64,000 nt of DNA from Escherichia virus TH22. Positions within the stretch are counted from its first letter, which is position 1. Each line of letters begins with the position of its first letter. A program made the translations under genes and the position numbers. Below are positions 4,156-49,285 of this stretch, in pieces. The notes below the pieces were generated by a model. The model was not told where the DNA came from and searched no databases. It saw only the letters and a list, made by a program, of their open reading frames with translations. The stretch lies in the sequence record MT446396.1; one strand, given 5' to 3'.

Positions 4156-5781
4156 TTATGGTCCAACAGTCACGAATGTAGACAAAAGAACCCATGCATT
4201 ATCAACGAGCACATAAGGGAGACCATCAGCTGCAGGAGCGACAGGAGGCCTTTTGGCGAGCTCTGTTTCTAAGGCTGATACTTTACCTTCTAAAGTAGTT
4301 ATCTTCGCCTCGGCCGCATCCAGGCGACCAGGGAGCGGAGTTACTGTACCTTCAAGGGTTGTCACGCGAGTGGTTAATGGTGCAATTTTTGCAGTATCGA
4401 GTTTAATTGCATCAATCTCGGTTCTGGTATCGATAATTTCAGTCCAGTTTCCTTGCTTGCGACCATATAACTTATTGTCCAATGGTGCGTCGTTCAGCTT
4501 GGACGCCATCAGCATATCCAAGTTAATTACAACCGGAAGAACACCACGTTCAGCCACGGTAGCACCGTTAGGGTTTGTACCATTCATCTGGCTAGTTAAA
4601 GTCAAAATAGAGCCTTTCATACCAGTGTTATTTGTACCGATTTCGGCCTGTACATCCTGAAGGCCTGATGCAGTTTCGTTAGCCAGTGTAGTGGTCGCAT
4701 TCAACTTATACGTGATAGTGTTTGGCTCCGGAGATTGCTCTGTACCGATTCTCTGAGAAAGCCATGCAGTGGTTCCGCGTAAACCAGAGCTTGAATCCTG
4801 GCCAACAACAACCTGTAAGCCATTAACATCCGAACGCAAAGCACTGATTCGACCATTAATTGTTAACGGTTCCAGAGCGGTGCCGATATCAGCTTCAACC
4901 TTAGCAAGTCTTGGTTTGATATCCACAATATCTGTTTCATTGACCGAAACACGTCCACCAAGATTTTCAACGCGAGTTGTAATTGCAAGTCCGGTACCAA
5001 AACCAATAGCTTCTTGAATGTTGGCAATATCTTCGTCAATTTCAACTGCTTTACCATCAAGAGTATTCAGTCGAACAAATACAGCCGGTTTACCTGTTGC
5101 TAAAGTAGACTCACCTAATTCTTCACGAATTTTAATTACTTTTACGTTAAGAGAACCAACATCAGAATCATGATAGTTATCTTCAAGAGTCTTAATACGA
5201 ACTCCATGAGCAACAATAGCCGAACTGTTATCGATGATGCGGCGTTTCATGCCTTTTGACGGATTGCCGATAACCTGGAGACCATTTATATCTTGGTCAA
5301 CATACTGGCCTAATTCATTTTTAATCCATACGAGGTCATTACGAACTGTGCGATAATATGAATCGGTTAACGGGTCATAAACACCAACATCTTCTTTTAA
5401 CTTTTTAAGGTCTTCAGATGTTTCGCTTGATAACAATTCGGTATTAAATTGACGTTCATCAAGGTCAAGAATATCCGTACGGTTTTTTTCAATTTGTTTA
5501 ACAACTTCCGTGTTAGTTGTTATATTCAAAGCTTCCTGAATATTATTGACGTTATCAATAATTTCGTTTATTTTTTCTTTAGATGCATTTGAGTTGTCGT
5601 CGAGTGTATCTACGTTTGTTTGAACGCCAACTGCAGCGGCGTTCAAATTACCATCATGACCATATTTGGTACTGGCCGCAGTCATACAATCGCCGTTTTG
5701 TATCCAACGAATTCTCTGTTGACCTTCGTCTGGAATACCGATGCTATACGGCAGTTCTTTGAGACTGAGTTTATTAATCAT
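4156..5781 (-). CDS. wac: Fibritin (whisker antigen control), neck whiskers
   Basis: C-terminus ...GLPYVLVDNAWVLLSTFV resembles the T4 fibritin foldon; long coiled-coil-like body; start set at MINKLSL (5781), 9 nt after gp12 stop, not the upstream in-frame Met of the track ORF. Confidence 0.85.
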   Translation of the reverse strand: MINKLSLKELPYSIGIPDEGQQRIRWIQNGDCMTAASTKYGHDGNLNAAAVGVQTNVDTLDDNSNASKEKINEIIDNVNNIQEALNITTNTEVVKQIEKNRTDILDLDERQFNTELLSSETSEDLKKLKEDVGVYDPLTDSYYRTVRNDLVWIKNELGQYVDQDINGLQVIGNPSKGMKRRIIDNSSAIVAHGVRIKTLEDNYHDSDVGSLNVKVIKIREELGESTLATGKPAVFVRLNTLDGKAVEIDEDIANIQEAIGFGTGLAITTRVENLGGRVSVNETDIVDIKPRLAKVEADIGTALEPLTINGRISALRSDVNGLQVVVGQDSSSGLRGTTAWLSQRIGTEQSPEPNTITYKLNATTTLANETASGLQDVQAEIGTNNTGMKGSILTLTSQMNGTNPNGATVAERGVLPVVINLDMLMASKLNDAPLDNKLYGRKQGNWTEIIDTRTEIDAIKLDTAKIAPLTTRVTTLEGTVTPLPGRLDAAEAKITTLEGKVSALETELAKRPPVAPAADGLPYVLVDNAWVLLSTFVTVGP

Positions 5782-5789
5782 TTTGGTCC

Positions 5790-7340
5790 TTAGTAATGAA
5801 TTTTGATAATATAGTTTAAAGACATATTCCATGGGCGAGTTTCATAACCAATAAGACCTTCACGGTTTAACGTACCTAAAGCATCTCTGCCGCCACCGAG
5901 TTCAAATCCATCGTTAGTAAAATATGAAGCGTTATCCCAGTCTGCATATTTTCTTGTACCCAGATAACCTTGATAAACTGATGCACCAAATGGAGCTTCG
6001 TTACGTTGGTATTCACCCCAACCACCCGCGTGTTTATGATATGACATTTGCTGAGCTTGTACACCACCGACCCATGAACCATCACAACCAACACCCAAAC
6101 GGTCTTTGCCATAACCATCTTGACCGCGGTTATTCAGAATATGTCCACCGGTACCAGCACCACGAACAAACAAACCACGCATATCAGGAATACCGACGTT
6201 GGTCCAATCGCCACCGAAACGAGTTCCAACAGTATTTCGATAGTCAGGGAATTGGTCACCATTAACGGTGCCGCCGTGACACATAATCCAGCCAGGAGGA
6301 GCACTATCACCTGCGAACATCATCACCGTTCCAACTGGAACCCGTTCAGAAGCATAACGCTGTGTAGAAAGTAATTGACCGCCCATATGAGCTGTATTGG
6401 AATCAAAATTGCCGGTGGAAATATAATCTAAAGAAAGACTTCCATTAATTCGTTGACCACCGCGAGTGTTGATTACATCAGCATTCCAAGCCAGTGCACC
6501 GGCACCATCACCACCAGGAGCAACCCCAGCCTGAGTAGTTAATCTAACGACGCCGCGATTATCGGTTGTGGCTCCACGACCATTAAGAGTTGCGCCAGTT
6601 ACCGCAACACCATCAGCACTGTTATTAATCTCTGACTGATTACCAAGACGAATAATCCCAGCGCGGTCTTGTGTTGCTGTACGAGCATTTAAACCTGCTG
6701 GAGAAATTGCTACACCGTCACCCAGGGTTCCTGCTTGCACTTCAGCATTTGTAGCAATTCGTACTAAACCAGAAACAGTTTGTGTGGCAGTTGAATAAGT
6801 TGGAAGCGCCGCTGTTGCTTTGCCAATTGCCAGAGCAACTTTCAACGGAGACATAGCGGTTGTGTCATCTGTGCCAGCTAAAGCTGCATCCTCGGTACTA
6901 ATACGAAGAACACCCAGGTTATTTTCAGTACCAACACGAACAGTAAAAACATCATCAATTGTTGCTTTTAATGAAGATGGAACAATAGCTGCATCGGTTA
7001 CTGTCCCGGCAATTGCTTCGGCATTGGTTGCATAACGGGTAATACCTACATAAGTTTCTGTAGCTTGCGTAGGAATGTCTAAACGAGCTTTTAAGGTCGC
7101 TGGAGTAACTGCAGAGTCTGGACTAATACCATCAATAACTTCTTGTGTGGTGGCTAGCCTGATGAGTCCTGCGGTCGTTTCGGATGAGGCTGGGATATAT
7201 CCATCTAACGCAATTTTATTAAGAGACCCTAAAGCCTCTTGCACGTTGGTAACAGTCGACGGGAAAGCTGTTCCCGTCGGGTCGAATGTTTTATATTCGG
7301 ATTTATCGCTAATGTGTTTTAGCGTGTTAGTCGTTGTCAT
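5790..7340 (-). CDS. 12: Short tail fiber gp12
   Basis: 516 aa; C-terminal motifs IPVGTVMMFAGDSAPPGW, LPDMRGLFVRG, SYHKHAGG, ETRPWNMSLNYIIK match T4 gp12 receptor-binding domain. Confidence 0.9.
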   Translation of the reverse strand: MTTTNTLKHISDKSEYKTFDPTGTAFPSTVTNVQEALGSLNKIALDGYIPASSETTAGLIRLATTQEVIDGISPDSAVTPATLKARLDIPTQATETYVGITRYATNAEAIAGTVTDAAIVPSSLKATIDDVFTVRVGTENNLGVLRISTEDAALAGTDDTTAMSPLKVALAIGKATAALPTYSTATQTVSGLVRIATNAEVQAGTLGDGVAISPAGLNARTATQDRAGIIRLGNQSEINNSADGVAVTGATLNGRGATTDNRGVVRLTTQAGVAPGGDGAGALAWNADVINTRGGQRINGSLSLDYISTGNFDSNTAHMGGQLLSTQRYASERVPVGTVMMFAGDSAPPGWIMCHGGTVNGDQFPDYRNTVGTRFGGDWTNVGIPDMRGLFVRGAGTGGHILNNRGQDGYGKDRLGVGCDGSWVGGVQAQQMSYHKHAGGWGEYQRNEAPFGASVYQGYLGTRKYADWDNASYFTNDGFELGGGRDALGTLNREGLIGYETRPWNMSLNYIIKIHY

Positions 7341-8005
7341 TACGATACTCGCTTATAATGGTAAAGTGAAATTGCGCCATCTGCTGTGCCACCTGATAAT
7401 GTCTGGGTTGAAGTTCCAAGATATTCCCAGGAACCATAACCACCGCGCGGTTGCTGTATAATAGTCTGGCTAAGCGTACAACCATATTGAGCAAAAGGTG
7501 CAAAATTATGGTTTTGATAGTCGTTATATGTAATATTTAATATAGACTGGTCTACACTATCAATTGCAGAGCTTGACACAATTAAACTATCAGCAACAGC
7601 CGCCAGCAAAGCATCGTTAACCTTGGAAGCAACTAATACAGCCGAATCCCCGACAATAACCTCAACTGGAATACCAAAAATGAAAAATAAAACAGTATCA
7701 CCAACCCCAGCACCAGAAATAGACCCGGTAAATTTAATTTTATCCGACTGACTGATTGCTGCAGGAGAAAGGTTATTCGTATTAGTAATTACACTGCCAA
7801 CCGGAAGCTCATATCGAAACGCAATATCATCTATTGCGCTCTGAACTGTTGGATAAAAAATACCTTCGGTTGTTTGTGTTGCGGATGGGCCGCCGATTGC
7901 TCGTTGACCCATGACAGCCGTAATATTTTTTGATGTATTTTGAAATTCTAAGCAACTAGCAAGGCGGGAAATTACTCCAGCCTTTTTATTCGTTAATGTT
8001 TTCAT
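7340..8005 (-). CDS. 11: Baseplate wedge protein gp11
   Basis: 221 aa, N-terminus M..NKKAGVISRLA resembles T4 gp11; T4 order 10-11-12. Confidence 0.85.
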   Translation of the reverse strand: MKTLTNKKAGVISRLASCLEFQNTSKNITAVMGQRAIGGPSATQTTEGIFYPTVQSAIDDIAFRYELPVGSVITNTNNLSPAAISQSDKIKFTGSISGAGVGDTVLFFIFGIPVEVIVGDSAVLVASKVNDALLAAVADSLIVSSSAIDSVDQSILNITYNDYQNHNFAPFAQYGCTLSQTIIQQPRGGYGSWEYLGTSTQTLSGGTADGAISLYHYKRVS

Positions 8006-9816
8006 TAAGCAATCCTTACCCAGCGATGAGCAATCAAATATGGAGGCATTGTATAAACCGGTTGAGCTTGAGGGTCTTGCGCCTGATTAATGGTGGCTTT
8101 GTCTTCTCTGTATTTGGTATAGGCTGGACCTTGTGCATCTGGGTCTACCTGACAACCACCGACAACAATCGGGCCATTATCATCAACAACTAAAACCTTC
8201 TCATCAGTTTCAAGTTTAGGTACGTTTATATCTTTAATATGAACTTCAACGCTACCACCTGTACCACCTGCTGTCGCTTGTGGGTTACCACCAGAATCCA
8301 GGTCATTATTGTTTGTATGGAAGTTTGAGGCAGGGTCGTCTGACCAGGCAACAATTACACGTTCTTTCAAACGTTTCCATGAACCAAATCCCATATAAGT
8401 AACCGGGTTATTTGGGTTAACCGTATTTTCGTAAATTGTACCGACCGGATAGAATAATTCAAAGATAACGCCAACAGAAGATGGAACAACTTCCTGAAGA
8501 CCGACTGGTTCAACGTTTGGTGCAAACGGATTATCAAAATCTGTAATACGCACACGACCGGTTAGGCTCAACGTATTTCCCTGAGAAACATAAAGAGTAT
8601 CAGTCTCATCACGGATTTCATCCATGGTCATAGTTGTGCCGATATCGTTATTGTACCAAATGACTGACAGAATATCACCGTCTTCAAATTCACGGTAAAT
8701 GCTAATGCCTTCGATACGGTTATCATCATCAAATTGCAGCAAATAATCCTGGTTTGATTCAGACCAGCTACCACCATTTGCACTACATTCTGCAGCAGTA
8801 GAACCTTGTGCACCTTCACAATAAAATACTGGAGTTCCCGCAGTACCAGCTTGATGTTGCAAAATACTGTTAATGAATACCTGACATGCGTTTGGGTTAA
8901 TTGGGCTACCAGGAGAAATACCAAGTTCTTCAATTGTAAAGGTGTGTTTGGTTGTCAAATCTGTAACAATCAAAGAACCATTAATTGTTGTTTCTTTGGT
9001 CCTGTCTTGACTACGAACAAGTATATCACGACGATTATACGAACTACGCCATTGAGCAATACCATCATTAAATGTTCGGATGATAACAGTATCACCTTCA
9101 GCACATGGCATTTTCAGACGGATGCTTTTACCATCAAGCGCAACGATTTCACCAGGGTTTGCACCAGGGGAACCAAATTCAGCATTCACCGGGTCAAAAA
9201 TATCATCTTTACCATAAAACAGGTCGTTACCACGATGTTTGACTTCTAAGTTCGATACGCTATATGGAATAGCACCAAACACATTGATAAAGTCAGTTTG
9301 TCCTTCGGTGGCAATAAACTGTTGGGATGCAACTGTGGCAACGTCGTTATTTGAAATTTTATCGACTTGTTTATTATCGATATATTCCCAACGACCTGGT
9401 GAACAATATACAAGTTCAAGGTCAGCTAAGTTGCGTTTAATTTCTACTGGATTCGGTGAGCCTTTAATCGTATCCCCGACTGCAGGAACAATTGTCACCG
9501 GGTTGATTTGCCAGGTAGCAAACACATCACGCAAGCGAATTACATAATTGTATTCTTGAGTTGTTCCTTTCGGAAGGACGACTCGAACGGCACCCGCTGA
9601 TGTATCGATGGTATAGCTTCGGCCCATAACAGCGGACAACTCGGTACCTTCTTGCGTAGTCCAAGTTTTCCATGCACCAGCTGCATGGGGATTTTCACCG
9701 TCCCCTAGCTGATAATAAAGGTCATCAAAGTTATTATTTATTTTTTGACCGCCGAGACGAAGGTAATCACCAGTACCATCATCAACCATATTGCCAATTT
9801 TTAAATTCTGTTTCAT
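8005..9816 (-). CDS. 10: Baseplate wedge protein gp10
   Basis: 603 aa (T4 gp10 ~602 aa); between gp9 and gp11. Confidence 0.85.
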   Translation of the reverse strand: MKQNLKIGNMVDDGTGDYLRLGGQKINNNFDDLYYQLGDGENPHAAGAWKTWTTQEGTELSAVMGRSYTIDTSAGAVRVVLPKGTTQEYNYVIRLRDVFATWQINPVTIVPAVGDTIKGSPNPVEIKRNLADLELVYCSPGRWEYIDNKQVDKISNNDVATVASQQFIATEGQTDFINVFGAIPYSVSNLEVKHRGNDLFYGKDDIFDPVNAEFGSPGANPGEIVALDGKSIRLKMPCAEGDTVIIRTFNDGIAQWRSSYNRRDILVRSQDRTKETTINGSLIVTDLTTKHTFTIEELGISPGSPINPNACQVFINSILQHQAGTAGTPVFYCEGAQGSTAAECSANGGSWSESNQDYLLQFDDDNRIEGISIYREFEDGDILSVIWYNNDIGTTMTMDEIRDETDTLYVSQGNTLSLTGRVRITDFDNPFAPNVEPVGLQEVVPSSVGVIFELFYPVGTIYENTVNPNNPVTYMGFGSWKRLKERVIVAWSDDPASNFHTNNNDLDSGGNPQATAGGTGGSVEVHIKDINVPKLETDEKVLVVDDNGPIVVGGCQVDPDAQGPAYTKYREDKATINQAQDPQAQPVYTMPPYLIAHRWVRIA

Positions 9817-10685
9817 TATACCGGTACTCCGATTGTTTGGGCGGAAATTACTTTAATAGCGAGCTTCATGGCAGTGGGTGAGCTTATAGCCGCCTGTATG
9901 ATGTCCTGGTTATCAATTCTAAAATCGATAGCATATATCTCATCATCGTCGTTAGCTTGTCCACGTCTGATTACAGCGTATTCTGTGCTATATACCTTGC
10001 GGTCCTTAAGGTCGATGTAAAGTAACATTTCTGATGCTTTGTATTTAGTTTCGTCTGTTGAAATAGCCGTAAGCATCAATTTGATAGTTTTATAATCTGC
10101 GCGGTAAGCGATTGGAATATCACGAACAACCGAGCTCATATTGTATGTTTTGTCGAGCAATACAGATTGGTTACCAAACATACTTTCAATTTTGTAGTCC
10201 CAGGTCCCTACGCCGTTAGCATCGTCAATACACCACAATGTAATTTTTGTATAAGGCTGAGTAAATTTCATTTTGTTCGTTGCAGCGGTCAGGAATGAAT
10301 CCGTGCCTTGTAGTTCAACTTCCAGAGGCATCGAGGTAGATAATGAACCATTGGAGTTAATAAAGATAACACCTTCGCCTGCTTTACCTTTTGCAATTCT
10401 TGCGGTGATAACACCTTCGGCAGTATTGACATCACGCATAGAACCGAGAGCAACAGTTGAGTTCCATTCGATGATATTTGTAGCTTTTTGATAGTACCCA
10501 GTCGCATGAAGGACCTGGGTGTTTTCTCCATTGTTCACAGAGTACAGACGTTGGTCGCCAAATGTATTATACAAACTGTCTAAATCCACGTTCAGTTTAC
10601 GACCGCCTTCATATAGAATATCACCGGTGCTAGCGTTACCAATCTCGCCGATGTCTACTAATAATTTTGGGGTTTGATTAATCAT
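9816..10685 (-). CDS. 9: Baseplate wedge protein gp9 (long tail fiber socket)
   Basis: 289 aa (T4 gp9 ~288 aa); preceded by its own late promoter as in T4. Confidence 0.8.
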   Translation of the reverse strand: MINQTPKLLVDIGEIGNASTGDILYEGGRKLNVDLDSLYNTFGDQRLYSVNNGENTQVLHATGYYQKATNIIEWNSTVALGSMRDVNTAEGVITARIAKGKAGEGVIFINSNGSLSTSMPLEVELQGTDSFLTAATNKMKFTQPYTKITLWCIDDANGVGTWDYKIESMFGNQSVLLDKTYNMSSVVRDIPIAYRADYKTIKLMLTAISTDETKYKASEMLLYIDLKDRKVYSTEYAVIRRGQANDDDEIYAIDFRIDNQDIIQAAISSPTAMKLAIKVISAQTIGVPV

Positions 10686-10712
10686 AGGTAAGCCTCGTTA
10701 TTGATATAGCTA

Positions 10713-10720
10713 TATTTATA
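10713..10720 (-). promoter_or_regulatory. T4-type late promoter (TATAAATA) for gene 9
   Basis: Minus strand reads TATAAATA ~28 nt upstream of gene 9 ATG, downstream of the gene 8 terminator. Confidence 0.6.
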
Positions 10721-10724
10721 GAAT

Positions 10725-10746
10725 AAAAAAGGGACCCGAAGGTCCC
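10725..10746 (-). terminator. Rho-independent terminator after gene 8
   Basis: GGGACC-TTCG-GGTCCC hairpin followed by TTTTTT on the minus strand. Confidence 0.65.
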
Positions 10747-10749
10747 TAG

Positions 10750-11754
10750 TTAGAATTCAAAAATAATGTTAACTTCTTCTGTCTGGTCCATTGCACGAAT
10801 AATTGGTGGGCGGTTTTCCATATAAATCATTTCCCCAGAATGACGGTCCAAATCAATTGCATCGTAGTATTCTTTGATTGCTTTGATATTTGGGTCATTA
10901 GGATGTACTTTAACTTCAAGTGGGTTGGATATAATCGACAGCTGTCGGAAGCCTTTGTTTCCCGGGAGACTGAATTCCGGGAAGTAAATGGAATCCATAA
11001 ATGCTTTAAATCTGATTGTATATCCTTTGATTCTATATATTAAACCGAAATCATCTTGTTGCCAGCTGATATTATCTTTGTAACCCCAGCGTGACGGGTC
11101 TTCTTCGATTTCTTCAGGCCATGGAACAACAATATATTCGTTAGTACAACGGTTGATGGATACATCAGGCGGAATCTCATACAAATATTCCCAGAGATAA
11201 CCATCGCCCATATCAACTCGTCCTTCAGTGTCGCCAGTCCCTGCTGGAGCTCTCGTCGAGTTATATTCTGCCGTCCATTTACCACCGAGTTTTAAGCACT
11301 CTTCTTTATTGATAATGGAATAAATGGAGCAAGTCCCAACATCAGGAACATCCACGCAACGATAAACCATCCAACCTTTACCAACATCAGTTCGGTTATA
11401 TGGAGCACTGTTAGCTACAACAATTTCCCCTACCTGGAAGTTAAGCGGATTAGGATATCTGATATCGCCCCAGTCTTTACGTGGGACAACACAATCAAGC
11501 ATTGACTTATAAACTTTGACTGCCCCCATCATATTGGTCCAAGTATCTTCAACACCTTGTGCTGTATCAACCGGATAAGGAGGGGCGAACCCCGGGTCAT
11601 TCTCATTCGAAGCCCAGGGTTCAGCCCGACCGAATGTTACATACATCGTATTCTGGTCAGGCTCGTTACCAATCATTTTATAAAAGTTATACATTTTTTC
11701 AGTTCGAAATTTCGAGGTAATTATCGAACGATAAACTACAGATGAATTATTCAT
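10750..11754 (-). CDS. 8: Baseplate wedge protein gp8
   Basis: 334 aa, identical in length to T4 gp8; overlaps gp7 stop. Confidence 0.8.
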   Translation of the reverse strand: MNNSSVVYRSIITSKFRTEKMYNFYKMIGNEPDQNTMYVTFGRAEPWASNENDPGFAPPYPVDTAQGVEDTWTNMMGAVKVYKSMLDCVVPRKDWGDIRYPNPLNFQVGEIVVANSAPYNRTDVGKGWMVYRCVDVPDVGTCSIYSIINKEECLKLGGKWTAEYNSTRAPAGTGDTEGRVDMGDGYLWEYLYEIPPDVSINRCTNEYIVVPWPEEIEEDPSRWGYKDNISWQQDDFGLIYRIKGYTIRFKAFMDSIYFPEFSLPGNKGFRQLSIISNPLEVKVHPNDPNIKAIKEYYDAIDLDRHSGEMIYMENRPPIIRAMDQTEEVNIIFEF

Positions 11755-14700
11755 TTACCTTTACCTGTGTGGGTTCTTTCGGGTCGCGTGGATTACCAAT
11801 ATCATCCTTAAGACGTTGATTAACCAAATTGCGCCAGTTAGCAAAAGTCACGGCAGACTGGTCAAACAATGGACTGTATTTTTTACGACGTTCAGACGGG
11901 AGAGTCCCATGAAAATCTGAAAAATCGTTTTCGGCATCATAATCTGCTGGTAATGGGAATGGTAAACCTGCATTAGGAGCAATATTATATACCGCTTCAC
12001 CTGTAACAGGACTACGCTCAATGTTTCCATCGGCCCCAATAACTGCGATACGGTCGCACCATTCTGACGGAATACCTGACGACCAACGATAGTTGTTCAG
12101 TTTATTGATAATAGTTTCGGTATGTTTTAATGACAGACCAGCATTAACAAACATTGTCAATAATGTAATTCCAACGAATCCAAATCCAACCGGATGAACA
12201 AATCGCAATACGTCATTACGATAACGAGATGTTGGGAGACTTGATTTAATGGTCATTACATAGTAAGAACGATTTCGGTTGATATAATCGATGTTGTTGC
12301 TAAGTAATTCTTTCCCACGAACACCCTGAACAATCATACCTTCAAAGGAAGTCCTTTCGGATTTAATTTCTTGCCCAACAATAAAGCGACCAAGTAAGTT
12401 ATGAATCGTGATACGCCATCTCAATTTACCCTGTTTGTAGTCACGTTCCATATAAGTAACGTTACTGCGACCAGTTGGTGTGTAAATTGTTTGTCCAACA
12501 ATATCTTCGCTGATGTTATCAGATTCGACGATTATGTCATACTCGGTTCCGTTCTTGGATTCAATATCGATTTCAACGTCTTCATTATATAACAATTTGA
12601 ACAAAAATTTATAGGATGCTTCAGTACCCTTAGTGGCCCAAAAATCAGACTGTCTTGCTTCAAAGAAACGAACTACTTCGTCACGCTTGGTCTTTGACAA
12701 ATATATATTTCTTTTGTACATTTCGCTCCAAAGGTATTCCCATGCATCTTCCTCGCGCGGGTACTGGTTGCGAATTAAGTTCAAAAGGTTGTTATAATAT
12801 GTACCAGAGCCATCACTGATAAACTGCAAATAATATTCACAGAATTTTTCAAAGTTGCTATCCTGGAGCAAATAACTATCTGGAACCATCTTTGTTAAAA
12901 GAGGACGCAAGTCTGGGTCTTTCTCTTGTTCGTCATTATCTGGTGTCCATGGAATATCATGTTCCTGGTTCTGTAATTCTGCAGTGAACATAACTTCTTT
13001 CGGTTTCCAGATTAATCTAACTTCATCACGCCTACGATAGTCAAATTCAAAATAGCCAATAAGCTCTCCAGTATTTTTGTGTAACATAATACCCGAGGCG
13101 TATTTTTTAAAGCCATTGAATTCGATGTTAGGAGAAGTAACTTTTACTTGACCTTTATTCCAGTATTCGTGTACAATACGTTCAGGGGATGAACCACCAA
13201 AGGTATCGATAATCTTTTGATACAGCATGTCATTATATACAACCAGAGCTCTGTCTGACGTAGTAATCCAACAACGAGTATCATCACGACGAGACCAGTT
13301 AAAGAACGGTTCAGCGTAATATGACATACGGCCAGGTTTAAACTCTTCCCAACCTGAATCTTTATTCGACCTAAAACTCATCATCAAATAATGCTTGTCA
13401 TGTATCCATTGTTCGTCATACACATATTTGACTGCTTCATTAACTTCTTCAGGATACTTAGCAGGGAGTTCAGTATCCGGCTCTACGGAATAACGGAAGT
13501 TACTTGAACTGATAAAAAGTTCAATTCCGTCGGTTGACATGCTTGTGTAACCATGTTCAATACGTCGACGTTCATCCTCTGTGTTACCAAAAACTCGTGT
13601 CCATGTATCGGTGTCAGCATTTAATTTATAAACGCCCTTAGATAACGAATCGACAACGTTTTCAGGTTTAGTCGGGTCTTGTCGCTCTTCTTTTACTTCC
13701 CCCGTGATTAATGCAAATACTTCACCATCAATTGCATCCATCTTATAACAAACAGCTTTTGGATTACCACTTATTGTGCTATATCCAGCTTCAAATAATT
13801 TTTCACCGAATGTTGGGGAGTTGGGGTCGTTATCAATTGGAGCATCAGAAGATTTAGCTTTGTACACACGGTCGCGCCCGGCAACGTAAATCATGGAATC
13901 GGTCGTAGTGATTGCTTCAGCAATTGTCGAGATATAAGCAGGAAGTCTTGCGTATGTGCCAAATATTTCAATATCAAATCCAAGATTGATATCCGAACCA
14001 ATTTTTGCAAATGTTATATCCTGGGAACTGAATCGAACATCATCAGCAGACCATCTTATGTCACTTGATTTGCGGCCGTAAAAAATTCGGTCATACCCGA
14101 GTACGTAAGTTGTCGTATCTGATTGATAATAAATTGTGCGCGATACTGGGTTACCGATACGGTCATTAAACAATTTTACATAATACCAGTTCTGCCCTTT
14201 ATCATTGGAGACTTTGACAGTTGTCTGGAATCGTTCAAACAAATACAGTACGCCACCGAGTTCAGCAATCATTGTACGATTAACATCGTTACATACCGGC
14301 TGAATGCTACCCTGGATTTCGTGGTATTGGTCTTCTTTTAATACATAGTTTGAAATTGAAGACAAATGAGAATACGCAGGAGTAAAGCTAAAATCTTCAG
14401 ACATCAGCGATGCCATAATTGCATCATTATTAAAGTTGATATAAGCTTGGTTATTGTTTGTAAATTTTTCTTCGATGAATTTATTTGTTAATGTAAATTC
14501 ACGCATGTGCTCAAATGTGTATGCGTTAGTTGCAAAGGTTTCAAATTCTTCGGTATAAACCCAATCAGATTGTTCAAAACCCATTGCTGCAACAGCAACA
14601 CGCATTTTGTAAAATGATACTGGACGAATAAAATCTTGTTCGAACCATTCATTGTCTGGAGTATAACCTAAATTCCTCCATAACAGATTTTCTTCTGGAA

Positions 14701-27501: not shown

Positions 27502-27575
27502 GGCCCTGTAGCTGGACGGTCAAGCGAGCGACTCATAATCGCTGGATGGTGGTTCGATTCCACCCAGGGCCACCA
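27502..27575 (+). tRNA. tRNA with anticodon CAT (Met, or Ile if lysidine-modified)
   Basis: Cloverleaf folds by hand: acceptor GGCCCTG/CAGGGCC, D-loop with GG, anticodon stem AGCGA/TCGCT, loop CTCATAA, T-arm GGTGG-TTCGATT-CCACC, encoded CCA. Confidence 0.85.
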
Positions 27576-27709: not shown

Positions 27710-27785
27710 CGAGGCATAGCTCAGAAGGAAGAGCAAGGACCTTCTAAGTCCTAGGTCGTAGGTTCGATTCCTACTGTCTCGACCA
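27710..27785 (+). tRNA. tRNA-Arg (anticodon TCT)
   Basis: Acceptor CGAGGCA/TGTCTCG, D-arm GCTC...GAGC, anticodon stem AGGAC/GTCCT with loop CTTCTAA, T-arm GTAGG-TTCGATT-CCTAC, encoded CCA. Confidence 0.9.
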
Positions 27786-44551: not shown

Positions 44552-44581
44552 AAAAGGTCTGCCTTCGGGTGGACCTTTTTT
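44552..44581 (+). terminator. Rho-independent terminator
   Basis: AAAGGTC...GACCTTT hairpin with GC-rich inner stem, followed by TTTTTT. Confidence 0.65.
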
Positions 44582-44589
44582 CATTTAGG

Positions 44590-44648
44590 GGTTTACATCC
44601 TCATCAAAAGGGTGTACTATTATCCCATCAACTACTGAGGAGAATACA
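44590..44648 (+). promoter_or_regulatory. Early promoter cassette
   Basis: GTTTAC -35, TACTAT -10, leader TATCCCATCAACTACTGAGGAGAATACAA. Confidence 0.65.
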
Positions 44649-45851: not shown

Positions 45852-46406
45852 ATGATTATTGAAAAATCTGGGTTGTTTGGTGACCTGACTGCCGATGTAA
45901 TTGATAATGCAATCGTGCTTAAACAAGAAGATGATACAGTCGTTTTGACCATTCAAGATATTCAGAACCTGTACAAGTTGTCTGTTATTGATGCAGAGCA
46001 GTATATTCGAACTCATAATCGTGTCTTTAAAATTAACGATGAAGTTGTGGCTTGGTTGTATCGAGGTGAAAATGGCTTTAATCTGGAAACCGAATGGGCT
46101 TGTTTATCCATTAAAAACCGTTCAGAATTTTTAGAGAAAATTTTTAAACTGTTCCAAGAAGAGTGTGTACCTGAGCTCGAATGGAAAATCCATGGTTGTG
46201 ATGCTATTATGCATTCAAGCGAAACCTTTGAAGGTGATGAAGAAGGTGATTATAATACTGAATTCAGTGTCCACCAACATCAAGGTCGCGATATGTTATC
46301 TATCATCCAGACCCACGATGGTGAAGCTGAAGTAGTATTCACTAAAGACGAATTAAAAGTTCTGGTAAAATACCTGAACACTGTTATCCCAACTATGAAC
46401 GCATAA
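45852..46406 (+). CDS. Hypothetical protein
   Basis: 184 aa. Confidence 0.55.
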   Translation: MIIEKSGLFGDLTADVIDNAIVLKQEDDTVVLTIQDIQNLYKLSVIDAEQYIRTHNRVFKINDEVVAWLYRGENGFNLETEWACLSIKNRSEFLEKIFKLFQEECVPELEWKIHGCDAIMHSSETFEGDEEGDYNTEFSVHQHQGRDMLSIIQTHDGEAEVVFTKDELKVLVKYLNTVIPTMNA

Positions 46407-46415
46407 GGAATTACA

Positions 46416-46868
46416 ATGATTATTAATGAAAACGCCTGGCACGTTAAATTACACGACCGTTTTTATGGCCATTATTCTCGCCCACACTCTTTGTGTGCTT
46501 ACTTCTGGAAAATTGTATGGGTCTGCTTTATTTGTTCTGTGCTTGCAGGTAGTACAATCTTCGCCTTAACTGTTGCAGGTGCTGGTGTATTGGAGCAGTT
46601 CTTTGTATTAAGTACTCCTGTTGGTTTAGGGTTAGGGTTTATTTTAGGACTAGCTACAATGGCTCTTATTTTGGCGGTAGCATTTGGTTTAATATATGGT
46701 CTAATGAATTTATGGGCCTGGTATGATTTACGTAAAGAAGAAAAAGAATGGGAACGAATTAAAGCCAAACGCGAAGGAAAGGAAATTAAAGAAAACGTTT
46801 TCATTCAATATATCAAAGCTCGTAAATCTAAGATGTGTCCGGTAATCCATTTTGAGGCGAAGAAATGA
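46416..46868 (+). CDS. Hypothetical membrane protein
   Basis: Two or three TM segments, Gly/Leu-rich. Confidence 0.55.
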   Translation: MIINENAWHVKLHDRFYGHYSRPHSLCAYFWKIVWVCFICSVLAGSTIFALTVAGAGVLEQFFVLSTPVGLGLGFILGLATMALILAVAFGLIYGLMNLWAWYDLRKEEKEWERIKAKREGKEIKENVFIQYIKARKSKMCPVIHFEAKK

Positions 46869-47875
46869 GAACAGTTATGAAGGGATATTTTGGGTCCCAT
46901 CTTTATGGAACAAGTACTCCGGAATCTGATGTCGATTTTAAGGAAATCTTTGTTCCACATCCACGTGATATTCTGTTAGGTACGGCAATGAATCATACAA
47001 ACTTGAACACGAATAACACGGCATCCAAAAACACTAAAGACGATGTTGACCACGAGCTTTATAGCCTGAAATATTTCTTTAAACTGGCGGCTGAAGGTGA
47101 AACTGTTGCTCTGGACATGATTCACACTCCGGCTAACCTGGTAGTCAAATCCGATTTACCAGATGTATGGAAGTTTATCCAAGACAACCGTTCACGGTTC
47201 TATACGACCAACATGAAAGCATATTTGGGGTACGTCCGTAAGCAAGCTTCAAAATATGGTGTTAAAGGTTCTAGACTGGCTGCTTTACGTGGTGTACTGG
47301 CAATTGTTAACCAGATTCCTGAACAGTGGGTTGACTACCAAGAAGATGGTTCGACTAAACAACGTCGCACTAAAGTTGAAGATATTAAGCATCGTCTCCC
47401 AGAGAATGAATTCTGTGAATGGGTATTCCATAACCATGAGAAAACCGGTCCTCAAACGTTTTATACTGTTCTCGGTCGCAAATACCAAACTACTTTGTCA
47501 TTAATCGAGCTTAAGCAATCTCTGAATAAACTTGATGCCGAATATGGTGAACGCGCTCGTAAGGCCGAAGCTAACGAAGGTATTGACTGGAAAGCTCTGA
47601 GCCACGCTTATCGTGCTGGATATCAGTTGAAGGAAATTTATATGACCGGTGACCTTCAATATCCTTTACGAACAGCCCCATTTATCCTTGAAATCAAACA
47701 AGGGCTACATGCTTTTAAAGATGTACAAGCTGAACTTGAAGCAATCGTCGATGAAGTCGAAACCAATGCCATCTGGGCGGCCAAGAACGGCATGCCCGAT
47801 AAGGTAGACATGAAGTTCTGGGACAAGTTTGTTGAAGAGGTATATCTTGACAACCACAATTCCTATTATCGTTAA
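46865..47875 (+). CDS. Pol-beta-superfamily nucleotidyltransferase-like protein
   Basis: N-terminal GSHLYGTSTPESDVDF fits the G-S-x(9-13)-D-x-D nucleotidyltransferase signature; 336 aa; function not assignable by eye. Confidence 0.65.
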   Translation: MRTVMKGYFGSHLYGTSTPESDVDFKEIFVPHPRDILLGTAMNHTNLNTNNTASKNTKDDVDHELYSLKYFFKLAAEGETVALDMIHTPANLVVKSDLPDVWKFIQDNRSRFYTTNMKAYLGYVRKQASKYGVKGSRLAALRGVLAIVNQIPEQWVDYQEDGSTKQRRTKVEDIKHRLPENEFCEWVFHNHEKTGPQTFYTVLGRKYQTTLSLIELKQSLNKLDAEYGERARKAEANEGIDWKALSHAYRAGYQLKEIYMTGDLQYPLRTAPFILEIKQGLHAFKDVQAELEAIVDEVETNAIWAAKNGMPDKVDMKFWDKFVEEVYLDNHNSYYR

Positions 47876-47882
47876 TGAAGAA

Positions 47883-48071
47883 ATGAAGGTCTTCTTATCA
47901 TATGGAAGACCCAATAAAGGTCGGCGCTGGTATCTCGAAGCAGTCTGTCGGAAAACTGGCAGACGAATCAACATTAAGTACACGTGTAAACCAACTTCCA
48001 AACAAACCAGGCGTTTTGTTAACTGGGCTATCAATATTATAAGATTCCATAATTTTTGGAGTGCAATCTAA
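47883..48071 (+). CDS. Small basic protein
   Basis: Start at MKVFLSYG; Arg/Lys-rich. Confidence 0.45.
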   Translation: MKVFLSYGRPNKGRRWYLEAVCRKTGRRINIKYTCKPTSKQTRRFVNWAINIIRFHNFWSAI

Positions 48072-48097
48072 GGACCCTTCGGGGTCCTTTTTTATTT
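48071..48097 (+). terminator. Rho-independent terminator
   Basis: AGGACCC-TTCG-GGGTCCT hairpin followed by TTTTTTATTTT. Confidence 0.75.
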
Positions 48098-48106
48098 TAA
48101 AAAGTA

Positions 48107-48174
48107 GTGTACAACAAGATGGTCATGAGGCATAATGATTCCATACTGAGTTACCAAATAAACTGGAGAATAAA
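48107..48174 (+). promoter_or_regulatory. Early promoter cassette (B-type)
   Basis: GTGTAC -35, CATAAT -10, leader GATTCCATACTGAGTTACCAAATAAACTGGAGAATAAA. Confidence 0.7.
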
Positions 48175-48381
48175 ATGTTAGAATTAATCAAAGCTGCTGG
48201 TGAAAAAGGTCTGATGGTTAACACTCGTGACCCTGAACAACGTCAAGCATTTGGTGAGTTAAAAGCCAAAGGTCTGGTTAAAGCATCCCTTGGTATTGGT
48301 AATGCTTTGCGTGTGACTTTGACCCCTGCAGGTAAAGCAATGTTCTTCCCTAAACCATTACCAAAACGTCGTCGCAAGTGA
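48175..48381 (+). CDS. Hypothetical small basic protein
   Basis: 68 aa; C-terminal KRRRK. Confidence 0.55.
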   Translation: MLELIKAAGEKGLMVNTRDPEQRQAFGELKAKGLVKASLGIGNALRVTLTPAGKAMFFPKPLPKRRRK

Positions 48382-48387
48382 GGAATT

Positions 48388-48690
48388 ATGAAAAAGTATG
48401 AAATTGACATGATTGATGCATGTCTGAAATCTGCTGACCATTTTAAATTGAAAATGCACAAGTTAAGAGGAATGGTCAAAACTCCAGAAGAGAAGAAACG
48501 TTATGCTCTGAAGGAGAAATGTAAAGCTCTTATCATGATGGATAAGCTGCAAATGGTCGCCGCAGAAGCTCACAGGACAAGAAAAGCAGAGGCTCTTGGT
48601 GTTTATATGGCTGAACAGATTCATCGCGCACAGCAAGCCGTTAAGAGCGCCTGGTTCAGTGGTGAAAATACTGAAAGAACTTTTAATTAA
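48388..48690 (+). CDS. Hypothetical protein
   Basis: 100 aa. Confidence 0.55.
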   Translation: MKKYEIDMIDACLKSADHFKLKMHKLRGMVKTPEEKKRYALKEKCKALIMMDKLQMVAAEAHRTRKAEALGVYMAEQIHRAQQAVKSAWFSGENTERTFN

Positions 48691-48692
48691 AT

Positions 48693-48760
48693 GTGTACAC
48701 AAGTATGGGAGCGTGGCATAATGTTCCTATACTGAGTTACCAAACAAACGGGAGAATAAA
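48693..48760 (+). promoter_or_regulatory. Early promoter cassette (B-type)
   Basis: GTGTAC -35, CATAAT -10, leader GTTCCTATACTGAGTTACCAAACAAACGGGAGAATAAA. Confidence 0.7.
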
Positions 48761-49285
48761 ATGGAAGCCAAATCAATCTTTAATCTGATTAATTACAATA
48801 ATGGTAATTTTAAATCAGAAGCACAAAGCAAGTTCTTTAATGATGTTGCTTGTGCAGGTGAGATTACAGTATCAGGTGGTCAAACTTATAAAAACGCCTG
48901 GAACTGGATTGTGACTGTTGATTCAGTTGGTATTGTTGATGTGTATAAAAACACTAACAAAAACCGCTCTTTGTTCTGGTCAAGAGAGACTAATGCTGAG
49001 TATCAAGCGGCAAGAGCAAAGAAAAATATGCCAACTGAATCTGATATCCAAAACATCAAATCAGATATCCAATATTATGATGGTCTGATTGCTGAACAAC
49101 AAGCAGTGCTTGATAAGTTCAATGAAATCAAAGCATGTAAAGAGATTCCTGAATTCATGCGGGAATCAGTTAATGAACAATACAATCTCACTTCAGAGCG
49201 TATTGAAACCTATACCAAACAAAGAGCAGAGCGCCAGGTACTCCTTCAGAAGTTTGAAGAGCGTTTAAAGACGGTTCTCGCATAA
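48761..49285 (+). CDS. Hypothetical protein with C-terminal coiled coil
   Basis: 174 aa. Confidence 0.6.
   Translation: MEAKSIFNLINYNNGNFKSEAQSKFFNDVACAGEITVSGGQTYKNAWNWIVTVDSVGIVDVYKNTNKNRSLFWSRETNAEYQAARAKKNMPTESDIQNIKSDIQYYDGLIAEQQAVLDKFNEIKACKEIPEFMRESVNEQYNLTSERIETYTKQRAERQVLLQKFEERLKTVLA

Follow-up and report, generated by a model that had tools for sequence, protein, structure and literature searches.

The window analysed here (64,000 nucleotides of Escherichia virus TH22, sequence record MT446396.1) carries a gene that is, by sequence comparison, the ortholog of the catalogued T4 gene nrdC.11, and its product is probably an RNA 3'-end nucleotide-restoring nucleotidyltransferase (NTase) of an NrdC.11-type branch of the RlaP family, acting as a partner of the phage Pnk and Rnl1. 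This assignment is supported by the open reading frame, its catalytic motif, its Pfam membership, its orthology with T4 NrdC.11, a model in which an NTase domain is joined to helices, and the linkage of the subfamily to RNA repair; an RNA substrate, the addition of one or two nucleotides and an anti-nuclease role would follow from homology and genomic context. The gene is already known and widely conserved in T4-type phages, and published work already covers both its place in the RlaP family and the role predicted for it; the value of the present analysis accordingly lies in confirmation and added context rather than discovery. What is added is an NTase-Pnk-Rnl1 cassette, a bacterial pairing with canonical RlaP, and a pair of hypervariable cassettes.

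The 336-aa frame begins with ATG and its coordinates stand in the ORF list as first given (Table 1). Its translation matched Pfam PF10127 (RlaP) at 41.9 bits (gathering score 23; E 1.2e-10) over residues 8–134, corresponding to profile positions 25–142 of 249 only, and matched phrog_388 ('nucleotidyltransferase') over its full length (E 2.7e-132). Homologs were found in 3054 clusters at 50% identity (E<=1e-3, exhaustive search), including 787 at E<=1e-30, and by tblastn in 1547 of 50,697 phage records. Given these matches, the frame is a real gene and not a chance ORF.

The DNA around the gene was 95–96% identical to Escherichia phages VR26, VR25 and VR7 (Straboviridae, Gaprivervirus), and by this measure the window is from a VR7/VR26-like T4-type phage. 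An Escherichia virus TH15 protein was 100% identical to the TH22 protein over 335 residues, and T4 NrdC.11 (NP_049709.1; 336 aa), which also matched PF10127 (46.6 bits), aligned with it without gaps at 82% identity. The VR7 counterpart is annotated as nrdC.11, 'nucleotidyltransferase, similar to T4 NrdC.11', and has mobD.1 with a membrane protein to one side of it and the nrdC.9-nrdC genes to the other; T4 and TH22 likewise share the place between the mobD.1 and nrdC.9 neighbourhoods. Their flanks differ in that T4 has mobD (an HNH homing endonuclease) upstream, whereas the window has a membrane protein with two predicted transmembrane segments (2-TM) there, and nrdC.10 (325 aa, weak AAA/STAND-NTPase matches) downstream, where the window has small ORFs. 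In VR26 (KP007362.1 / NC_028957.1), the match to a 3001-base query (46000–49000) spread over about 4006 bases in three pieces, with a mobD homing endonuclease annotated beneath it, a mobile endonuclease insertion that is absent from the TH22 window.

The RefSeq product name of the T4 protein is 'nucleotidyltransferase'. Many GenBank and UniRef entries call this NTase 'thioredoxin', apparently a misnomer inherited from the nrdC.* locus name, and one calls it 'HNH homing endonuclease'. Genome-reduced T4 has lost nrdC.11 within a missing nrdC.11-mobD.3 fragment, and record OL964745.1 (Escherichia phage T4, 159,752 bp) is a deletion variant that keeps only the last 39 codons of the gene. The gene is therefore dispensable in the laboratory and, as a consequence, no phenotype anchors the RNA-repair role; a literature search returned no functional study of nrdC.11.

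The earlier note had proposed a Pol-beta-type nucleotidyltransferase, and this was borne out by G10-S11-x10-D22-V-D24 as well as by the PF10127 and phrog_388 matches. Residues 10–24 read GSHLYGTSTPESDVD, in agreement with the Pol-beta signature G-[SG]-x(9-13)-D-x-[DE], with D22-V-D24 as its acidic pair, and the superfamily motif hG[GS]-x(9-13)-Dh[DE]h at the helix-turn and strand 2 is present in the TH22 protein. In an alignment of 70 homologs (33–83% identity), G10, G15, S21, D22, D24, Y131, K243, H247, R250, P267 and G280 were invariant, while S11, D60, D62, D84 and others were at least 90% conserved; conservation within the family peaked at residues 13–24, 121–132 and 241–252. The note had treated a missing third catalytic acid as grounds against its proposal. 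Such a residue is present: in hhalign, D62 lined up with D88, the third and invariant Asp of the canonical RlaP paralogs, alongside the invariant D22 and D24. Since the neighbouring D60 is Asn in T4 and hence dispensable, D62 is left as the likely third carboxylate. The most conserved C-terminal stretch, DWKALSHAYRAG, formed the block of highest conservation (0.78), and its K243, H247 and R250 may bind the NTP or the RNA. An inactive or structural protein was also considered and was ruled out by the conservation of all catalytic residues.

Table 1. Features of the nrdC.11 ortholog and its surroundings in the TH22 window.
Feature	Coordinates	Strand	Basis
Promoter-like GTTTACA-N17-TACTAT heading the transcription unit with the gene	44591..44620	+	Consensus scan and sequence
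GAGG ribosome-binding site (Shine-Dalgarno), 7 nt 5' of the ATG	46854..46857	+	Direct sequence reading
CDS, ortholog of T4 nrdC.11 (RlaP-family Pol-beta nucleotidyltransferase)	46865..47875	+	ORF list, identity to T4 NP_049709, PF10127, phrog_388, VR7 annotation
N-terminal NTase alpha/beta core (about aa 1-112)	46865..47200	+	Pfam, hhalign, AF2 secondary structure
NTase signature G10-S11-x10-D22-x-D24, with GS at the helix-turn and both metal-binding Asp on strand 2	46892..46936	+	Motif match, conservation, hhalign
D62, probable third catalytic carboxylate, on strand 61-67	47048..47050	+	Conservation, hhalign, AF2 model
Hypervariable cassette 1 (aa 139-216), holding the beta-rich insert (strands 154-208)	47279..47512	+	Column identity, ortholog comparison, AF2 model
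K243-x3-H247-x2-R250 on helix 242-261, within DWKALSHAYRAG	47591..47614	+	Invariant in 70 homologs
Hypervariable cassette 2 (aa 262-312)	47648..47800	+	Ortholog comparison
Intrinsic-terminator-like hairpin (8 bp, 5 GC, T-run) closing the unit 3' of the small ORF 47883-48071	48070..48089	+	Sequence scan

RlaP was reportedly named by Burroughs and Aravind in 2016. Its members were predicted to replace the nucleotides that damaged RNA has lost, prior to ligation, and a review of jumbo phages gives the family the same predicted role. The first biochemistry came with a preprint of December 2025 (PMC12776372), in which PfRlaP and PaRlaP from Pseudomonas added one or two NMPs to an RNA 3'-OH. According to that study (PMC12776372), a 3'-OH was needed and a 3'-phosphate blocked the reaction, Mn2+ was preferred, DNA and protein were not substrates, and all four NTPs and even dATP were accepted, with little NTP specificity. 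Both enzymes favoured the break of a nicked-tRNA mimic over the acceptor end, and they partly rescued the aminoacylation of a tRNA missing one anticodon-loop nucleotide; the crystal structure of PfRlaP has an N-terminal NTase domain and a C-terminal helical domain whose last helix packs back on the NTase domain (PMC12776372). In the same work T4 NrdC.11 is a member of PF10127 SSN cluster 5, 'of unknown function' (PMC12776372).

Against canonical full-length RlaP sequences taken from bacterial loci, hhalign aligned residues 5–132 of the TH22 protein (probability 93%, 13% identity), pairing G10-S11 with the GS and D22/D24 with the DxD of the canonical enzymes; the sequence match to PF10127 and canonical RlaP is thus confined to the N-terminal NTase region. 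The C-terminal half (aa 133–336 or 210–336) gave no significant alignment to canonical RlaP (probability 0.1–0.2%), and a resemblance seen by eye between K-x3-H-x2-R in TH22 and K-x3-Y-x2-R in canonical RlaP is for that reason not claimed as homology. PfRlaP and PaRlaP share with the TH22 protein an above-threshold PF10127 match, the GS, DxD and third Asp and, as judged from the AF2 model, an NTase core with a helical domain after it, and the NrdC.11-type homologs show the operon linkage to RtcB and to Pnkp/Hen1; the NrdC.11 type differs in being about 70–80 aa longer, in its beta-rich insert, and in aligning over only the first 130 or so residues. T4-like phages have the NrdC.11 type only, whereas canonical RlaP occurred in 78 phage records, most of them from jumbo phages that infect Pseudomonas, Caulobacter and relatives, and none with an E. 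coli host.

The AlphaFold2 (AF2) model was confident (mean pLDDT 93.8, pTM 0.79) and places an alpha/beta NTase core up to about residue 112, helices at 118–149, and the beta-rich insert at 154–208; from residue 213 onwards the chain is helical and ends in the conserved helix 316–335. The protein is thus predicted to combine the NTase core and the beta-rich insert with a HEPN-like helical domain at its C-terminus. A helical region of about 280 aa after the core had been suggested; the helices are found in the model, but the region is not purely helical, since the insert of about 154–208 is beta-rich.

A Foldseek search of the AF2 model against the PDB returned nothing at E<=1e-3 (TM about 0.25), a PDB sequence search with the TH22 protein gave no match, and a PDB search with the 70-sequence profile gave chance matches only (E>0.1). 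The closest solved structures were Hailong HalB, the kanamycin nucleotidyltransferase ANT(4'), the NTase-like protein 3c18 and MNT/HEPN pairs, with 7–14% identity to the TH22 protein. HalB, ANT(4') and MNT-HEPN differ from it in having substrates of their own (dATP for oligomerisation, aminoglycosides and a HepT tyrosine, respectively) and other gene contexts. The NCBIfam model for MntA (type VII toxin-antitoxin MNT-HEPN) scored 13.2 bits (cutoff 60), and other NCBIfam matches were also below threshold; compared with MNT-HEPN, the HEPN-like domain of TH22 is fused to the NTase and carries K-x3-H-x2-R, not Rx4-6H.

Gene neighbourhoods of NrdC.11-type homologs were surveyed in 80 cellular loci (homologs of 32–50% identity, 1.02 Mb in total), whose ORFs were searched with HMMs built from recurrent, Pfam-annotated neighbours. 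Pnkp (kinase-phosphatase-ligase), Hen1 and RtcB each occurred in 9 of the 80 loci and TROVE/Ro60 in 5; at least one of these four was present in 18 loci and none of them in the remaining 62. One megabase of random bacterial DNA would be expected to hold well under one each of Pnkp, Hen1, RtcB and TROVE. In about five loci Pnkp lay directly upstream on the same strand, overlapping the match or no more than 11 nt from it. A Nitrosospira locus (L040, about 5000–14000) holds an RNA-repair island in the order TROVE-RtcB-NTase-RlaP-Hen1-Pnkp, and a 4-kb contig binned as Bathyarchaeota (L004:80-3803) encodes, in this order, the NTase, a T4-type Pnk (AAA_33 plus PNKP phosphatase) and an Rnl1-type ligase as a compact cassette. 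Among 77 viral loci, 7 had a repair gene within 10 kb (T4-type Pnk in 5, Rnl1 in 1, RtcB in 1). VR7, the closest annotated genome, encodes pseT and rnlA at a distance of about 87 kb from nrdC.11, and no RNA-repair genes were found in the 64-kb window. No recurrent effector gene was seen in the homolog neighbourhoods.

Canonical full-length PF10127 RlaP (about 255–290 aa) was also present in 21 of the 80 bacterial and archaeal loci (L005, L011, L012, L020, L025, L027, L040, L047, L049, L061, L062, L067, L076, L077 and others), nearly always immediately downstream of the NrdC.11-type gene on the same strand, a tandem that is absent from T4-like phages. Its recurrence suggests that the NrdC.11 type and canonical RlaP are probably not redundant and that they may differ in activity.

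Pnk and Rnl1 of T4 were the first RNA-repair system to be discovered. In the mechanism that we favour, cleavage by an anticodon nuclease leaves a 2',3'-cyclic phosphate, which Pnk would process to a 3'-OH; the NTase would then transfer one or two NMPs from NTPs onto the 3'-OH of the broken RNA without a template, leaving a 3'-OH again, and Rnl1 would join the restored end to the 5'-phosphate. During infection this would replace tRNA nucleotides trimmed by host anticodon nucleases, for example those of the wobble-excising RloC type. Because Pnk yields a 3'-OH and Rnl1 requires one, the RlaP step chemically fits between them, and the order Pnk, NTase, ligase is regarded as coherent for 5'-phosphate ligases, in contrast to RtcB, in the discussion of the RlaP preprint (PMC12776372). 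Were NrdC.11 to restore the nucleotide, most T4-like phages would possess a three-enzyme repair pathway, and the strong conservation of a dispensable gene would be explained. The earlier note held that a function could not be chosen by inspection among modifying RNA ends, making or intercepting nucleotide messengers and nucleotidylating proteins. The field has since been narrowed by orthology with T4 NrdC.11, membership of RlaP and the RNA-repair operons, and of the three options the modification of RNA ends is favoured, through the RlaP biochemistry (PMC12776372) and the RNA-repair loci. As to orthology with a family of known function, the ortholog itself (T4 NrdC.11) and RlaP relatives that do add nucleotides to an RNA 3'-OH were found, while for the T4 type the function is carried over from those relatives.

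CCA-adding enzymes and MenT toxins add a few nucleotides to RNA 3'-OH ends without a template. The jumbo-phage review sets CCA-adding enzymes beside RlaP; CCA-adding enzymes and MenT differ in that they act on the acceptor end and not on an internal break, and they show neither a sequence nor a fold match to the TH22 protein (Pfam, Foldseek). A related alternative is that the phage enzyme tails RNA 3' ends for offence or regulation, extending tRNA acceptor ends or host mRNA or rRNA 3' ends so as to block charging or mark decay, in the manner of MenT or of a poly(A) polymerase, or else that it rebuilds damaged CCA ends. When given total E. coli RNA, canonical RlaP labels full-length tRNA as well as species of rRNA size, and it shows little NTP specificity (PMC12776372); both would suit such an activity, as would the precedent of MenT toxins, reported to be NTases that extend tRNA acceptor ends (PMC11541572), and the early-promoter-like site that appears to head the gene's transcription unit. 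We nevertheless regard it as unlikely: on a nicked-tRNA mimic, canonical RlaP favours the 3' end created by the break over the acceptor end (PMC12776372), the subfamily is linked to Pnkp/Hen1, RtcB, Ro60, Pnk and Rnl1 and not to toxins or antitoxins, and the phage relies on host tRNAs.

A further alternative is a protein or small-molecule nucleotidylyltransferase, working as MntA does when it AMPylates HepT or as kanamycin nucleotidyltransferase does, with the C-terminal HEPN-like bundle as substrate-binding domain. This seems improbable given that every structural match is distant (none at E<=1e-3 in Foldseek, TM about 0.25), that canonical RlaP left E. coli proteins unlabelled (PMC12776372), and that the neighbourhoods are those of RNA repair and not of toxin-antitoxin or resistance genes. 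Still less credible is an enzyme that would make nucleotide or oligonucleotide signals or decoys (cGAS/DncV-, OAS- or Hailong HalB-like, the last making oligo-dA) and so disturb host immune signalling. The likeness to cGAS/DncV-like CD-NTases extends to the generic GS...DxD Pol-beta signature only, and a CD-NTase assignment was rejected in view of the absence of a PADLOC match, of any CD-NTase among the PDB neighbours and of a recurrent effector gene nearby, which leaves the cGAS/DncV-like signalling option of the earlier note without support. Nucleotide restoration at broken RNA ends remains our preferred reading of the gene.

RloC-type nucleases have been proposed to defeat Pnk/Rnl1 repair through the removal of a nucleotide. 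Speculatively, and with considerable doubt on our part, NrdC.11-type NTases might be the missing phage answer to such 'repair-proof' anticodon nucleases, putting the excised wobble nucleotide back after Pnk has acted and before Rnl1 seals, with the cassettes at aa 139–216 and 262–312 setting the recognition of damaged tRNA or evading host inhibitors; the enzyme would then be a module of an arms race, separate from the canonical RlaP that accompanies it in bacteria. Residues 145–216 are the least conserved part of the family (column identity 0.07–0.37), and both cassettes diverge between TH22 and T4. One ortholog (P0076) was 97% identical in aa 1–138 and 41% identical in aa 139–216, while another (P0011) was 59% identical in aa 262–312 and 98–100% identical over the rest of the protein. 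The orthologs of T4-like phages thus appear to be mosaic, with recombination shuffling two cassettes within an otherwise conserved enzyme.

The ATG of the nucleotidyltransferase gene shares bases with the stop of the preceding ORF in an ATGA overlap, by which the upstream membrane-protein ORF is translationally coupled to it. That ORF (46416–46868, +) encodes the 150-aa predicted 2-TM membrane protein, with weak, sub-threshold oleosin- and holin-like Pfam matches, and directly 3' of the NTase gene lies a strongly basic small ORF of 62 aa (47883–48071, +; Pfam DUF7279), after which comes the strong terminator-like hairpin of Table 1. The Rfam scan of the 64-kb window returned no RNA family other than two tRNAs, tRNA-Met (CAT) and tRNA-Arg (TCT), at 27502–27575 and 27710–27785 (+). 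No MotA box was found on the + strand in the stretch from the upstream terminator to the NTase gene. The upstream GTTTACA-N17-TACTAT site resembles the T4 early-promoter consensus and follows a strong terminator-like hairpin (44552–44579); as a promoter it is only suggestive, since promoter-like sites were no more numerous in this region than shuffled sequence would lead one to expect. The arrangement is consistent with an early transcription unit from about 44.6 to 48.1 kb, as judged from consensus matches alone.
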